From sequence record MF158045: a DNA stretch of 64,000 bases; one strand, given 5' to 3'. The notes below the pieces were generated by a model. That model was given only the letters and a program-made list of their open reading frames with translations. It did not search any database and was not told the DNA's origin. The stretch is from Shigella phage Sf22. This document shows, piece by piece, positions 2,688-8,164 of the stretch; positions within the stretch are counted from its first letter, which is position 1; each line of letters opens with the position of its first letter. The position numbers and the translations under genes were made by a program.

Positions 2688-5600
2688 ATGGCTACTTTAA
2701 AACAAATACAATTTAAAAGAAGCAAAACCGCAGGAGCACGTCCTGCTGCTTCAGTATTAGCCGAAGGTGAATTGGCTATAAACTTAAAAGATAGAACAAT
2801 TTTTACTAAAGATGATTCAGGAAATATCATTGATCTAGGTATTGCTAAAGGCGGTCAAATTGATGGAAATGTAACTATTGATGGAACTTTACGCGTCAAT
2901 GGACCAATAAACAACTTTGGAAATTTTTCTACAAGTGGTACTATTACGGCAAGTAATATTGTTTCTGCTACAGTATTCAGATCAACATCCGGTTCATTTT
3001 ATACAAGAGCAATAAATGATACTGCAAATGCCCATCTTTGGTTTGAAAATACGAATGGATCGGAGAGAGGGGTTTTATATTCAAAACCACAGTCTGAAAA
3101 TGAAGGCGTAATTACAATGCGCGTTCGCCAAGGAACCGCAGCAGGGGCTCAAAATTCAGAATTTCATTTCATTTCTACTGATGGCGGTATCTTCCAGGCA
3201 CGCAAATTAACTGCTTTAACTTCTATTAGTACACCAACTATTAGTGTTAATTTAATTAATCATGATTCTAAAGCCTTTGGACAATACGATTCACAATCAT
3301 TAGTTCAGTATGTTTATCCTGGAACCGGTGAAACAAATGGTGTAAACTATCTTCGTAAAGTTCGAGCTAAATCAGGTGGAACTATTTACCATGAAATTTG
3401 TACAGCTCAGACTGGGCTAGCTGATGAAGTTTCTTGGTGGACTGGTAATATACCGTTATTTAAACTATACGGTATTCGTAACGACGGTAGAATGATTATT
3501 CGCAATAGCTTGGCCATTGGTACTGTGACGGAAGGGTTTCCGTCAAGCGATTATGGAAATACTGGGGTAATGGGAGATAGGTATTTAGCTCTTGGCGATA
3601 ATGCTTCTGGACTTAAATGGGTTCGTACTGGCGTTATTGACTTAATGGCTAACGGTATTTCTGCGGCGTCTATTATTAATAATGGTATTAACAGTACTAA
3701 AAAATTAATGGTTGGTTATAGTCGAGATTCTGGTTCTACTTGGGATTTCCCAAATAACAACCAAGCAATGTTTACTGCGCGTACCGATGTTGATGGTAAT
3801 AATAACGGTGATGGTCAAACTCATATCGGTTATAGCAGTAATTCTAAAATGTATCACTATTTCCGTGGTACAGGTCGTATGTCCGTTAGTATGGGCGATG
3901 GACTTCTTGTTGAGCCTGGCATTTTAGATATTAAAACTGGTTCAAATTCATTAAATTTGCGTGCTGATGGTACTGTTGCATCTACTCAAGAAGTTAAGCT
4001 TAATAATGGGTTATTCTTTAATAGTAGTTCTTCTAACGCCGGTCTTAAATTTGGCGCTTCTTCTTCTATAAATGGAACTAAGACAATACAATGGAACGCA
4101 GGCACCCGCCCGGGTCAGAACAAAAGCTATGTGACCATGAAAGCATGGGGCAATGCATTTGAGGATAATACTAATAAAAACAGAGAAACTGTATTTGAAT
4201 TAGGCGATGGACAGGGTTGGCATTTTTATTCACAGCGCGTTGCTCCTGCAGCAGGTTCTACTGCCGGTTCTGTTGAATTTGCGATGGCCGGTAGTTTATT
4301 AACTTCTGGTTCTATTACAACAAGATCTTCCCTGAATGCTGATAATGGATTGTCTGTAAATGGACAAGCTAAATTTGGTGGAACGGCTGATGTATTAAGA
4401 ATTTGGAATGCTGAATACGGTGCTATTTTCCGTCGCTCAGAAAGTAATCTTTATATTATACCGACTCCTAAAGATGCTGGAGAATCGGGCGGTATAAGTA
4501 ATCTTAGACCATTGATAATAGAACTGAACACTGGCACAGTTAAAATGTCGCATGATGTTCATTTAGGAGATTCTGGATCTGGTACAGGACTTTTACAAGT
4601 AAGTAATAGTCTTAAAACTATTAAAATGATATGTCCAGTAACTATTAATGAACGCAATGCAGCGCTTACCCTGGATTCTCCTTCATCTTCTTCTGCTAAT
4701 TATTTACAGGGTTCTAAAGCTGGAACTAGATCATGGTACGTTGGTCTTGGCGGCGCTGGAAATGATTTATCTCTTTATAGCCAATCTTATGGACATGGTC
4801 TTGTTATAAGTGATAATTTCACGTCAATCACTAAGCCTCTTAAAGTCGGCAATGCCCAATTAGGAACTGACGGTAATATTACCAATGGTTCAGGAAACTT
4901 TGTCAACTTAAATACCACGTTAAATCGTAAAGTTAATTCTGGATTTATTACTTATGGAGCAACCTCTGGATGGTATAAGTTTGCAACAGTAACAATGCCA
5001 CAATCCACTTCGACGGTCTTCTTTAAAATAGTTGGAGGTTCTGGATTTAATAGCGGATTATTCACACAATGTAATATTGCTGAAATTGTTTTACGTACTA
5101 GTAATGAAAGACCTTCTGACTTAAATGCTGTATTATACACAAGAACAACTGGAATGTATAGCGCAGCATTTAGAAATATTGCAGTTAACAATGTCTCTGG
5201 AAATACATATGACATTTATGTTTATGCTGGAACATATTGTAATCAACTAGTTTGTGAATGGTCATGTACCGAAAATGCTACTGTTAGCGTTATTGGTATT
5301 AACTCATCTACCCAATCACCTGTGGATGCTCTTCCAGATACAGCAGTTGATGGGCAAGTTGCTAATGTTCTTAATAACTTGGTTGATCGTGGTAAAGTTA
5401 AGCGTTATGAAGCCGATTCTGAAATAGCTATTAATAGCCAAACCGGTATTCGTATCAGAAGCAATGCCGATAAAACTGGTTCTGTGGCTACAATGTTACG
5501 AAATGACGGTGGCAGTTTTTATATTCTGTTTACAGATAAAAATGCCACTGATGGCGCAGCAACTGTTAATGGTGATTGGAATAGTAAACGTCCTTTCGCA

Positions 5601-6377
5601 ATTAACTTAACAACCGGCGAAGTGATGATGAATAACGGCATAGCTGTTCGCAGCGCTGCTTTATTCTATAATAGCATAAACGTCAAAGATAATGGTTCTA
5701 TTAACTTTGATAAGTCCGGCGCTAACCCGAGAAACATGCGTATATTCCATGCAGGTGATGGCACTCGTGGTAATCGCATTGAAATTGCTGATGAAACAAA
5801 CTATATTGCTTACTTCCAAAAATTACCTGGTGGTCAAAATCAGGTTTCATTCAATAGTGCTACACTTTCTGGATTAACACAGTGTAATCAATTTGGTGTT
5901 AACACAACAAACGCACTTGGTGGAAACAGTATAACATTTGGTGATACTGATACTGGTATTAAGCAAAATGGCGATGGATTATTAGACATATATGCGAACA
6001 ACGTGCAAGTGTTCCGTTTCCAAAATGGTGATTTGTACTCATATAAAAATATAAATGCTCCAAACGTTTATATTCGTTCTGATATTCGTTTAAAATCTAA
6101 CTTCAAACCTATCGAAAATGCACTTGATAAAGTTGAAAAACTCAATGGTGTCATTTATGATAAAGCTGAATACATCGGTGGAGAGGCAATTGAAACTGAA
6201 GCGGGTATTGTAGCTCAAACGTTACAAGACGTTTTACCAGAAGCCGTCCGTGAAACAGAAGACAGCAAGGGTAATAAAATACTCACTGTTTCTTCTCAAG
6301 CCCAGATTGCTCTTCTGGTTGAAGCTGTGAAAACGCTTTCTTCTCGTGTAAAAGAACTTGAATCTAAACTTATGTAA
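2688..6377 (+). CDS. 37: Long tail fiber distal subunit gp37 (T2-type, with C-terminal chaperone-like segment)
   Basis: 1229 aa, Gly/Ser/Asn/Thr-rich fibrous composition; follows gp36; longer than T4 gp37 (1026 aa) as in T2-type fibers. Confidence 0.9.
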   Translation: MATLKQIQFKRSKTAGARPAASVLAEGELAINLKDRTIFTKDDSGNIIDLGIAKGGQIDGNVTIDGTLRVNGPINNFGNFSTSGTITASNIVSATVFRSTSGSFYTRAINDTANAHLWFENTNGSERGVLYSKPQSENEGVITMRVRQGTAAGAQNSEFHFISTDGGIFQARKLTALTSISTPTISVNLINHDSKAFGQYDSQSLVQYVYPGTGETNGVNYLRKVRAKSGGTIYHEICTAQTGLADEVSWWTGNIPLFKLYGIRNDGRMIIRNSLAIGTVTEGFPSSDYGNTGVMGDRYLALGDNASGLKWVRTGVIDLMANGISAASIINNGINSTKKLMVGYSRDSGSTWDFPNNNQAMFTARTDVDGNNNGDGQTHIGYSSNSKMYHYFRGTGRMSVSMGDGLLVEPGILDIKTGSNSLNLRADGTVASTQEVKLNNGLFFNSSSSNAGLKFGASSSINGTKTIQWNAGTRPGQNKSYVTMKAWGNAFEDNTNKNRETVFELGDGQGWHFYSQRVAPAAGSTAGSVEFAMAGSLLTSGSITTRSSLNADNGLSVNGQAKFGGTADVLRIWNAEYGAIFRRSESNLYIIPTPKDAGESGGISNLRPLIIELNTGTVKMSHDVHLGDSGSGTGLLQVSNSLKTIKMICPVTINERNAALTLDSPSSSSANYLQGSKAGTRSWYVGLGGAGNDLSLYSQSYGHGLVISDNFTSITKPLKVGNAQLGTDGNITNGSGNFVNLNTTLNRKVNSGFITYGATSGWYKFATVTMPQSTSTVFFKIVGGSGFNSGLFTQCNIAEIVLRTSNERPSDLNAVLYTRTTGMYSAAFRNIAVNNVSGNTYDIYVYAGTYCNQLVCEWSCTENATVSVIGINSSTQSPVDALPDTAVDGQVANVLNNLVDRGKVKRYEADSEIAINSQTGIRIRSNADKTGSVATMLRNDGGSFYILFTDKNATDGAATVNGDWNSKRPFAINLTTGEVMMNNGIAVRSAALFYNSINVKDNGSINFDKSGANPRNMRIFHAGDGTRGNRIEIADETNYIAYFQKLPGGQNQVSFNSATLSGLTQCNQFGVNTTNALGGNSITFGDTDTGIKQNGDGLLDIYANNVQVFRFQNGDLYSYKNINAPNVYIRSDIRLKSNFKPIENALDKVEKLNGVIYDKAEYIGGEAIETEAGIVAQTLQDVLPEAVRETEDSKGNKILTVSSQAQIALLVEAVKTLSSRVKELESKLM

Positions 6378-6379
6378 AA

Positions 6380-6407
6380 GAGGGCTTCGGCCCTCTAAGG
6401 ATTTTTA
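6380..6407 (+). terminator. Hairpin with UUCG loop between genes 37 and 38
   Basis: AGAGGGC-TTCG-GCCCTCT then T-rich run; may act as attenuator or RNA stability element. Confidence 0.5.
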
Positions 6408-7202
6408 ATGGCAATTGTAGGTGTTCCTGGCTGGATTGGTGAATCTGCCGTGAATGAAACTGGACAGCGTTGGATGGATGCTGCGATGAGAGCAGTTCGT
6501 GTTTCAGTTCCTGGTTGGATGAGCTCAATGGCTGGGCAATCTAAAGAAGTATATTATAGCATTGGTGCTAGCAATTCTTACAATAAAGACACACTAATAA
6601 ATTATCTCAAATCTCAAGGTAGTACTCCTGTTGTTGTTACTATTACTGGTAACCTAGTTTCTTCATCTGCAAGGCAACCTTGCTTAGATTTTCCTAGCTC
6701 ATTAACTAATGCTTATGTAACGCTTATTATAAATGGCGGTGTAACAGTATATGGTCGCGGAGGACGCGGCGCGCAAGCGGGAAACCAGGCGGGTGAAGCT
6801 GGTGGTACTGCAATTAACAATGGTATAGGTACTCGTCTACGAATCACTAACAATGGAGCAATCGCTGGCGGTGGTGGTGGTGGCGGCGCCCAATCAACTG
6901 ATAATGGATGGGGAGGTAAATATGTTTCTGGCGGCGGCGGCGGACGTCCTTTCGGAGCTGGTGGTAATAATGGAGCAAAAGCTCCGGGTGCATCAGCATC
7001 TTTAACATCTCCAGGCGCAGGTGGAAAAATGTATTCCGGCGTTGGATACTACGGTGGTGACGGTGGTAATGTTGGTGAACGAGGTAAGGATGCGGTTAGA
7101 TTGAACGGCTATTCGAACTCACCTGGCGCAGCAGGTAAAGCTGTTACTGGTAACGCACCAACATGGACTAAGGTTGGTACAATATATGGTTCAAGAGTAT
7201 AA
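6408..7202 (+). CDS. 38: Receptor-recognising tail fiber adhesin gp38 (T2-type, glycine-rich motifs)
   Basis: 264 aa with several poly-Gly blocks (GGGGGGGAQ, GGGGG) separated by variable segments; immediately downstream of gp37. Confidence 0.85.
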   Translation: MAIVGVPGWIGESAVNETGQRWMDAAMRAVRVSVPGWMSSMAGQSKEVYYSIGASNSYNKDTLINYLKSQGSTPVVVTITGNLVSSSARQPCLDFPSSLTNAYVTLIINGGVTVYGRGGRGAQAGNQAGEAGGTAINNGIGTRLRITNNGAIAGGGGGGGAQSTDNGWGGKYVSGGGGGRPFGAGGNNGAKAPGASASLTSPGAGGKMYSGVGYYGGDGGNVGERGKDAVRLNGYSNSPGAAGKAVTGNAPTWTKVGTIYGSRV

Positions 7203-7208
7203 TTTTTG

Positions 7209-7216
7209 AATAAATA
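7209..7216 (+). promoter_or_regulatory. Possible late-promoter-like box (AATAAATA) upstream of t
   Basis: One mismatch to TATAAATA, about 19 nt before the t ATG. Confidence 0.3.
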
Positions 7217-7234
7217 TCCTTAAAAGGAGGGTCT

Positions 7235-7891
7235 ATGGCAGCACCTAGAATATCATTTTCGCCCTCTGATATTCTATTTGGTGTTCTAGATCGCTTGTTC
7301 AAAGATAACGCTACCGGGAAAGTTCTTGCTTCCCGGGTAGCTGTCGTAATTCTTTTATTTATGATGGCGATTGTTTGGTATAGGGGAGATAGTTTCTTTG
7401 AGTACTATAAGCAATCAAAGTATGAAACATACAGTGAAATTATTGAAAAGGAAAGAAATGCACGCTTTGAATCTGTCGCCCTGGAACAACTCCAGATAGT
7501 TCATATATCATCTGAGGCAGACTTTAGTGCGGTGTATTCTTTCCGCCCTAAAAACTTAAACTATTTTGTTGATATTATAGCATACGAAGGAAGATTACCT
7601 TCAACAATAACTGAAAAATCACTTGGAGGATATCCTGTTGATAAAACTATGGATGAATATACAGTTCATTTAAATGGACGTCATTATTATTCTGACTCAA
7701 AATTTGCTTTTTTACCAACTAAAAAGCCTACTCCCGAAATAAACTACATGTACAGTTGTCCATATTTTAATTTGGATAATATCTATGCTGGAACGATAAC
7801 AATGTACTGGTATAGAAATGATCATATAAGTAATGACCGCCTTGAATCAATATGTGCCCAGGCGGCCAGAATATTAGGAAGGGCTAAATAA
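7235..7891 (+). CDS. t: Holin T (lysis, lysis-inhibition sensor)
   Basis: 218 aa; N-terminus MAAPRISFSPSDILFGVLDRLFKDNATGKV and one N-proximal TMD match T4 holin as I recall it; strong SD AAGGAGG. Confidence 0.95.
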   Translation: MAAPRISFSPSDILFGVLDRLFKDNATGKVLASRVAVVILLFMMAIVWYRGDSFFEYYKQSKYETYSEIIEKERNARFESVALEQLQIVHISSEADFSAVYSFRPKNLNYFVDIIAYEGRLPSTITEKSLGGYPVDKTMDEYTVHLNGRHYYSDSKFAFLPTKKPTPEINYMYSCPYFNLDNIYAGTITMYWYRNDHISNDRLESICAQAARILGRAK

Positions 7892-8164
7892 TTATTTGTT
7901 CGTATACATCTCTAGATATCGATATACACCCTCAAAACCCTCGTTGAATTCGTCGATGAGGGTTTTCTTATCTTCTTGAGTTAATTCAGAAACAATTTTA
8001 CGGAATGAATTCTGATTTAATTTTCTACCTTCATGCGTTACTCCAATCTCATTCAGAAATGCAATAAAATTAGCACGATTCTCAACAATATCTTCTCTGG
8101 AAAATTTAATCAAAATAGACGCAACAGTAATAATTTCACGAACTGTATCAATGTTTTTATTCAT
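7892..8164 (-). CDS. asiA: Anti-sigma70 factor AsiA
   Basis: 90 aa, MNKNIDTVREIITVASILIKFSREDIVENRANFIAF matches T4 AsiA as recalled. Confidence 0.95.
   Translation of the reverse strand: MNKNIDTVREIITVASILIKFSREDIVENRANFIAFLNEIGVTHEGRKLNQNSFRKIVSELTQEDKKTLIDEFNEGFEGVYRYLEMYTNK

Follow-up and report, generated by a model that had tools for sequence, protein, structure and literature searches.

What kind of receptor-binding end does the long tail fibre of Shigella phage Sf22 carry, and which host receptor would it address? An earlier note on this DNA had proposed a T2-type module, in which a long gp37 ends in a chaperone-like domain and is joined by a glycine-rich gp38 adhesin. Here, we examine the locus within the window, a stretch of 64,000 nucleotides from the Sf22 record (MF158045), by profile searches, alignments and comparison with solved structures. 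Very probably, the whole is the end by which a Tequatrovirus with long tail fibres of the T2 type binds its receptor, acting through the mechanism proposed below.

Results

Genes 37 and 38 (Table 1) lie in the canonical order 36-37-38-t, and both reading frames have the lengths given previously, 1229 and 264 aa, respectively. The stop of gene 37 and the start of gene 38 are 30 nt apart. The spacer between them holds a hairpin with an RNA folding energy of -13.4 kcal/mol (z=-2.1), and the record of phage K3 (X04747) annotates the same hairpin as a potential terminator that overlaps the gene 38 ribosome-binding site. A Pfam ILEI match in gp35 was dropped as a special feature, as T4 gp35 matches likewise, and an NCBIfam scan of gp37 and gp38 matched no family in that library, which is aimed at bacterial proteins.

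Table 1. Features of the gene 37-38 locus of Sf22 (nucleotide positions in the window; loops by gp38 residue).
Feature	Position	Strand	Basis or sequence
Gene 37, distal long-tail-fibre subunit	2688..6377	+	1229 aa; ORF and Pfam Gp34_trimer, gp37_trimer, Peptidase_S74
Exchangeable cassette: gp37 tip, chaperone and gp38	5903..7252	+	87-100% nt identity to ime09 and KRT47 (sliding)
Conserved distal tip of mature gp37, aa 1081-1130, ends ...APNVYIR	5928..6077	+	Predicted docking surface of the gp38 N-terminal domain
Intramolecular chaperone / Peptidase_S74 domain, gp37 aa 1131-1229, 99 aa	6078..6374	+	PF13884 and homologous cleavage site
S1131-D-I-R-L-K1136, putative catalytic Ser/Lys dyad motif	6078..6095	+	Read directly from the sequence
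Intercistronic hairpin AGAGGGC-UUCG-GCCCUCU, then T-run, in the gene 37/38 spacer	6379..6396	+	Terminator-like match
Gene 38, T2-type tail-fibre adhesin	6408..7202	+	264 aa; Pfam GP38 8e-73, Gp38_N 8e-18
gp38 N-terminal attachment domain, aa 1-42, W9/W22/W37	6408..6533	+	PF21721
gp38 receptor-recognition region	6771..7115	+	Five loops, Gly-rich motifs between
Loop A	aa 122-127		AQAGNQ
Loop B	aa 164-173		TDNGWGGKYV
Loop C	aa 187-192		NNGAKA
Loop D	aa 207-214		KMYSGVGY
Loop E	aa 230-236		VRLNGYS

The C-terminal end of gp37, which also bears Gp34_trimer and gp37_trimer domains, is a Peptidase_S74 domain that runs to the stop. The whole PF13884 profile (1-58 of 58) is matched at aa 1131-1188 (E=3.4e-15, 56.5 bits, cut-off 22), and the chaperone alone matches two solved structures, S16 gp37 (6F45_A, 5e-6) and the MYRF autoprocessing domain (7DC3, 7e-4). 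The domain opens with the motif SDIRLK, in which Lys stands five residues after Ser. Its S, D, R and K do not vary in an alignment with T2, ime09, Phaginator and S16, and its counterpart in the MYRF domain 7DC3 is ADLRAK. The domain as a whole is identical to that of ime09 (100%) and one residue off that of T2. The chaperone-like character claimed for the last roughly 130 residues of gp37 therefore stands, but not the size: the Pfam match and the S16/T2-like cleavage site delimit 99 aa. The peptide quoted for this region, IRSDIRLKSNFKPIENALDKVEKLNGVIYDK..., is present and starts at gp37 aa 1129, with 101 aa to the end.

In S16, the chaperone releases itself by autocleavage at the corresponding site, for which the sequences DLNVS^SDRRIKK (S16) and DVYIR^SDGRLKI (T2-like) have been reported (PMC7917993). 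By analogy, a cut of Sf22 gp37 between R1130 and S1131 is predicted; autoproteolytic release is expected because T2 gp37, with its domain one residue different, is processed, and because of the S16 case. The distal tip preceding this site (aa 1081-1130) is 95-100% identical to T2, ime09 and K3 and can be aligned to the gp37 construct in the S16 co-crystal structure with gp38 (6F45_A, 3.4e-11). A role of the ...VYIR strand in gp38 docking has been described (PMC7917993).

As had been proposed, gp38 aligns with the T2-type adhesins and not with T4 gp38. It matches GP38 (PF05268) at aa 47-264 (8e-73, 245.3 bits, cut-off 25), Gp38_N (PF21721) at aa 1-42 (8e-18, 64.6 bits) and PHROG 2056, "tail fiber protein; host specificity" (1.8e-102), and among solved structures the gp38 proteins of PP01 (9V85, 5.6e-56) and S16 (6F45_D, 3.5e-45). 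Neither these family matches nor the S74 match of gp37 is due to chance. Residues W9, W22 and W37 are invariant among Sf22, PP01, S16, T2 and Phaginator, and such Trp "prongs" plug into the gp37 tip (PMC7917993). Residues 1-46 are 97.8% identical to T2, and this T2-subtype N-terminus is coupled with the T2-subtype gp37 tip described above; co-varying subtypes of gp37 tip and gp38 N-terminus are described by Trojet et al. (PMC3157838).

The remainder of gp38 has the proposed architecture of poly-Gly blocks parted by variable stretches. Glycine makes up 22% of the protein, with runs at G154-G160 and G175-G179 and more Gly-rich motifs split by variable stretches, and invariant Gly columns (G116-G121, G132-133, G154-159, G175-179, G183/186, G203/205 and G217-226) flank the variable loops. 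Homology to 9V85 and 6F45_D suggests that gp38 folds as a polyglycine-II sandwich; gp38 is 54% identical to a solved structure, and its fold can therefore be regarded as already fixed. Single-sequence AlphaFold2 of gp38 gave a mean pLDDT of 32.6 and a pTM of 0.23, values too low to say anything about the fold.

The five loops A-E were placed by alignment onto those of the PP01 gp38 crystal structure (PMC12892980). All of them are identical to the loops of KRT47 and ime09, as is the whole of aa 119-240 (100%). Against PP01, an OmpC binder, 6 of 10 residues of loop B and 4 of 6 of loop C are shared, and loops A, D and E differ; in PP01 gp38, loop E is the main specificity determinant (PMC12892980). 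Over its full length, gp38 is 99.6% identical to ime09, with one residue different, and 98.9% identical to KRT47. R89, outside the loops, is private to the gp38 studied here and is Gly in ime09 and KRT47.

The exchangeable cassette that contains these elements has its left junction at about nt 5830-5900. Directly upstream, gp37 aa 1020-1085 are shared at 100% identity with phages PaulHMueller and F13076; this segment had appeared unmatched in a small panel, a reading that these two phages led us to reject. Segment-wise comparison reveals that the gp37 shaft is a mosaic. Its best full-length match is Phaginator (81% aa), and among 50,697 phage records nothing exceeds 68% identity to a mid-shaft segment at aa ~430-570. 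Residues 1 to ~640 are collinear with T4 gp37, homology to T4 ends near aa 640-800, and the distal ~590 aa are T2-type and unlike T4 throughout. The excess of about 200 aa over T4 gp37 (1026 aa) that had been pointed out is real, but gp37 is not T4 gp37 with an added chaperone, as the entire distal half differs from T4. Among T2-type fibres (T2 1341, ime09 1282, KRT47 1276, Phaginator 1275, K3 1243 and PP01 1109 aa), a gp37 of 1229 aa is unremarkable in length.

Discussion

How would this module be assembled and used? What the sequence shows directly is the family of each protein, the conserved motifs, the near-identity with known modules and the placement of the loops, and it contains nothing contrary to the module assignment. 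In the mechanism that we propose, three gp37 chains would fold into the distal half-fibre, with the 99-aa chaperone nucleating trimerisation and folding and cutting itself off at R1130|S1131, where S1131 would serve as nucleophile and K1136 as base. Release would bare the flat hydrophobic tip ...APNVYIR, on which a single gp38 would dock via its Trp-bearing N-terminal domain (aa 1-42), and the rest of gp38 would form a beta-helix and a polyglycine-II sandwich from its Gly-rich motifs. From this sandwich, five hypervariable loops would project and bind an outer-membrane porin, most probably OmpC, since they equal the loops of Shigella phage KRT47. Cleavage, capping, the 1:3 stoichiometry and the receptor are all drawn from relatives and would be shared by Sf22. 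That gp38 sits at the virion tip and sets the receptor has been shown for T2, K3, Ox2, S16 and PP01 and by gp38 swap experiments, and by analogy gp38 would be the tip adhesin that fixes the receptor in Sf22.

Might the S74-like domain instead be kept in the mature fibre, either inactive or as part of the tip, with gp38 binding elsewhere or transiently? Cleavage of Sf22 gp37 is a prediction from homology, and the Pfam match spans just aa 1131-1188 of the 99-aa tail. However, the Ser/Lys motif is intact, the domain is that of ime09 and within one residue that of T2, whose gp37 is experimentally processed, and the surface on which gp38 docks in S16 becomes accessible only once the chaperone has been released (PMC7917993); we regard retention as very improbable. 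The chance that gp38 is a T4-type assembly chaperone, absent from virions, with receptor binding left to gp37, is smaller still and close to negligible, even though some database records name the orthologue "distal long tail fiber assembly catalyst", a legacy label derived from T4. Adhesin families and two solved adhesin structures are matched strongly, which speaks against it, as does a gp37 without the T4-type C-terminal receptor-binding region. We rejected this assignment, as BLASTP against T4 gp38 gave E=0.81 over 5 aligned residues and the Pfam search gave no such match. The two outcomes that the earlier note had named as refuting its reading, a gp37 C-terminus unlike S74 domains and a gp38 of T4 type, were both looked for, and each check favoured that reading.

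OmpC is most probably the receptor of Sf22, given that all five loops match KRT47, for which a need for OmpC has been reported; mutations in OmpC loop-5 and loop-7 impair adsorption of that phage (Tinney et al. 2022, as cited in PMC12892980). This call depends on that one report, made in Shigella and relayed second-hand. It is unlikely that architecture and mechanism are as proposed and the receptor is OmpF, OmpA, Tsx, FadL, OmpW or LPS. The known receptors of Tequatrovirus gp38 adhesins comprise Tsx, OmpA, OmpF, FadL, OmpW and OmpC, and a single loop residue can switch the porin, as does Q206L in RB68 from OmpF to OmpW (bioRxiv 10.64898/2026.04.02.716166). Moreover, the three loops that differ from PP01 do so from the structurally characterised OmpC binder, and phages with near-identical gp38 have been isolated on E. 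coli, Shigella and Citrobacter rodentium. The CrRp10 paper was checked for receptor data, and none were found. Against a receptor other than OmpC stand the identity to KRT47 across the loops and all of aa 119-240, with the OmpC dependence relayed for that phage, published phylogenies in which close gp38 relatives share a receptor (PMC12032242), and loops B and C, which are nearer to PP01 than to T2, Phaginator or S16.

The module is textbook T-even biology, and the reading of the earlier note, though essentially right, repeats published work (PMC3157838, PMC7917993, PMC12892980). It has been known since 1986-87 that T2 gp37 is cleaved and that gp38 caps it (Drexler 1986; Riede 1987), and PMC3157838, citing Drexler et al. 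1986, describes T2 and T6 gp37 as proteolytically processed and then gp38-capped. The structure of the S16 gp37-gp38 complex is likewise known (PDB 6F45, Dunne et al. 2018). Every element, from gp37 processing and gp38 capping to the design with glycine-rich and hypervariable parts and the three-dimensional structures, has thus been published, and no open question is touched. Mildly new are only the mosaic shaft and its one mid-shaft segment without a match above 68%. The unsampled shaft, the OmpC adhesin cassette of ime09/KRT47 type and the private G89R could conceivably, if with rather poor odds, together give a host range or a fibre property (length, flexibility or secondary lateral LPS contacts) that is absent from known relatives; such a pairing of shaft and cassette would combine alleles in a new way and leave the mechanism as it is known. 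The value of the locus is practical: its sequence predicts the use of a gp38 adhesin, probably directed to OmpC, and the cassette of ~1.35 kb could be swapped to retarget a phage.

How does the Sf22 module compare with known systems? The closest, ime09 and KRT47, resemble it in the cassette DNA (87-100%) and the receptor loops, and ime09 also in an identical chaperone, whereas their gp37 shafts upstream of aa ~1063 are just ~61-63% identical to Sf22. T2 has the same gene order, ~95-100% identity in gp37 tip and chaperone and 97.8% in the gp38 attachment domain, but its gp37 is 112 aa longer, and gp38 aa 119-240 are just 50% identical to Sf22; the receptor specificity therefore differs. The receptors of T2 are FadL/OmpF. 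S16 (6F45) has the autocleaving chaperone, Trp-mediated cap, polyglycine-II sandwich and five loops that homology predicts for Sf22, although gp38 is 47-48% and the gp37 C-terminus ~34% identical, the S16 chaperone has 113 aa instead of 99, and its gp37 is far shorter (749 aa). The closest solved structure is PP01 gp38 (9V85), which binds OmpC of E. coli O157 and has similar loops B and C, whereas its loops A, D and E differ and loop D of Sf22 is two residues longer.

Beyond the T-even adhesins, Peptidase_S74 domains of the endosialidase / T5 pb1 type and the eukaryotic MYRF ICA domain share with Sf22 the profile match and a Ser-x4-Lys motif at the start of the domain, and the endosialidase / T5 pb1-type domains also lie, as here, at the very C-terminal end of a trimeric fibre. 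In Sf22, however, the domain sits on a T-even long tail fibre and not on a tailspike, and the bared tip would, by homology, take a separate adhesin, whereas in the endosialidase type the bared tip itself binds the receptor. T4 shares the gene order and, in the N-terminal ~640 aa, a homologous gp37, but T4 gp37 ends in its own receptor-binding tip without an S74 domain, and T4 gp38 (183 aa) is an unrelated chaperone.

Results

Family membership, sequence motifs, mapped receptor loops and near-identity to characterised modules place genes 37 and 38 in a T2-type receptor-binding module, made up of the distal long-tail-fibre subunit gp37 and the tail-fibre adhesin gp38 (Table). The earlier note had read them this way, with the correct lengths for both products, and its reading stands with two corrections, to the chaperone length and to how unusual the length of gp37 is.

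In the C-terminus of gp37, residues 1131-1188 match the Peptidase_S74 ('chaperone of endosialidase') domain over its full length (56.5 bits, E=3.4e-15; Pfam threshold, 22 bits) and open with S1131-D-I-R-L-K1136, the Ser/Lys motif that marks the self-cleaving Peptidase_S74 family. Alignment with T2, ime09, Phaginator and S16 shows no variation at the S, D, R and K positions of the motif. Among solved structures, the last 128 residues matched S16 gp37 (6F45_A, 5e-6) and the MYRF autoprocessing domain (7DC3, 7e-4), with the motif in register with those of both. A published alignment (PMC7917993) places the cut at DLNVS^SDRRIKK in S16 gp37 and at DVYIR^SDGRLKI in T2-like fibres; together with NVYIR^SDIRLKS at the corresponding site in the window, this predicts a released piece of residues 1131-1229. 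The putative piece has 99 residues, not the roughly 130 proposed earlier; the peptide quoted with that proposal is present and begins at residue 1129. The chaperone domain is identical in ime09 and differs by one residue in T2, whose gp37 is proteolytically processed and then capped by gp38, as PMC3157838 relays from Drexler et al. 1986. The earlier note called gp37 long, but its length is nothing unusual for a T2-type fibre (1109 to 1341 aa in our panel).

That gp38 is a T2-family adhesin is borne out by its matches to Pfam GP38 (8e-73) and Gp38_N (8e-18), to PHROG 2056 'tail fiber protein; host specificity' (1.8e-102) and to the solved adhesins of PP01 (9V85, 5.6e-56) and S16 (6F45_D, 3.5e-45); it does not resemble the T4 gp38 chaperone (E=0.81). 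Aligned distant relatives all share the N-terminal residues W9, W22 and W37 and unchanged glycine-rich motifs, with variable stretches between the motifs. Loops A-E were located by mapping onto the receptor loops of the PP01 crystal structure (PMC12892980).

The window is a portion of a T-even (Tequatrovirus) genome, and many E. coli and Shigella phages with sequenced genomes share 96-97% DNA identity with a 25-kb stretch adjoining the module. The local order is 34 (C-terminal end), 35, 36, 37, 38 and t, then asiA, arn, motA and 52 on the opposite strand; ARAGORN detected no tRNA genes anywhere in the 64,000-nt window. Other open reading frames resemble the usual T-even early region (annotated matches to motA, gene 52, rII, topoisomerase and helicase). 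The hinge protein gp35 matches Pfam ILEI, the eukaryotic interleukin-like EMT inducer domain, at residues 58-126 (E=1e-8); we rejected this as a peculiarity of the phage, since T4 gp35 gives the same match, making it a family trait. A terminator-like hairpin of 14 pairs lies just past the t stop, inside the asiA 3' end, and AATAAATA, 19 nt ahead of the t start codon, is a putative late-promoter site that fits the T4 consensus, TATAAATA, at 7 of 8 bases. The 30-nt gap separating genes 37 and 38 holds a G+C-rich hairpin capped by a UUCG tetraloop (AGAGGGC-UUCG-GCCCUCU; -13.4 kcal/mol, z=-2.1) and followed by a T-run. The 1986 phage K3 record annotates the same hairpin, describing it as a potential terminator that overlaps the ribosome-binding site of gene 38.

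Table. Features of the tip module and its surroundings; loops are mapped from PP01
Feature	Window (nt)	Strand	Residues or length	Sequence or closest reference
Gene 35	842-1957			
Gene 37	2688-6377	+	1229 aa	
gp37 segment			1-440	Phaginator
gp37 divergent segment	3975-4397		~430-570	
gp37 segment			561-920	Phaginator / UFV13 / K3
gp37 segment			921-1040	SholemSchwarzbard / K3
gp37 segment			1081-1229	T2 / ime09 / K3
Gene 37/38 hairpin	6379-6396			
Gene 38	6408-7202	+	264 aa	
gp38 residue 89	6672-6674			Arg
gp38 loop A			122-127	AQAGNQ
gp38 loop B			164-173	TDNGWGGKYV
gp38 loop C			187-192	NNGAKA
gp38 loop D			207-214	KMYSGVGY
gp38 loop E			230-236	VRLNGYS
Late-promoter-like site	7210-7216			
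Holin gene t (next after gene 38)	7235-7891			
asiA (convergent with t)	7892-8164	-		
Terminator-like hairpin	7934-7966	+		

Discussion

Taking cleavage, capping, stoichiometry and receptor from the relatives, we infer that the gp37 chaperone domain would drive trimer folding of the distal fibre and then remove itself between R1130 and S1131, exposing the tip. The exposed tip would receive one gp38 via its Trp-bearing N-terminal domain, and the gp38 polyglycine-II sandwich would present the five loops to a porin receptor.

Which porin might these loops recognise? The adhesin is 99.6% identical to that of ime09, the sole difference being Gly at position 89, and 98.9% identical to that of KRT47; residues 119-240, all loops included, are identical in the three. 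Position 89 lies outside the receptor loops and is Gly also in KRT47, T2, Phaginator and S16. KRT47 reportedly depends on OmpC, and its adsorption is weakened by mutations in loops 5 and 7 of that porin (Tinney et al. 2022, as cited in PMC12892980). Because residues 119-240 are those of KRT47 and close relatives in gp38 phylogenies have a common receptor (PMC12032242), we predict OmpC as the receptor. Our confidence is only moderate, because the source is second-hand and single substitutions in gp38 loops can switch the porin used.

The closest reference for gp37 changes from segment to segment across the reference panel; its best full-length match is Phaginator (81% identity), and at megablast level no phage record covers at least 80% of the gp37-gp38 DNA. 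Residues 1020-1085 are identical to PaulHMueller and F13076. The divergent mid-shaft segment (residues ~430-570) overlaps a Gp34_trimer-like Pfam match at residues 495-611; the best of 50,697 phage records, DCP80, matches it at only 68% identity. Known phages match the flanking segments at 92-100%, and the divergent segment itself appears to be an allele that is locally unsampled. Over nt 5903-7252, spanning the gp37 tip, chaperone and gp38, DNA identity to ime09 and KRT47 is 87-100% and drops sharply upstream, so the tip module behaves as an exchangeable cassette. A gp38 attachment domain of T2 subtype (97.8% to T2) accompanies a T2-subtype gp37 tip, a pairing of subtypes described by Trojet et al., and patchwork is the well-documented norm at this tail-fibre locus (PMC3157838). 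The biology of the module has been known since 1986-87, its structure was resolved for S16 in 2018 and for PP01 in 2026, and this specific adhesin is already present in public databases.
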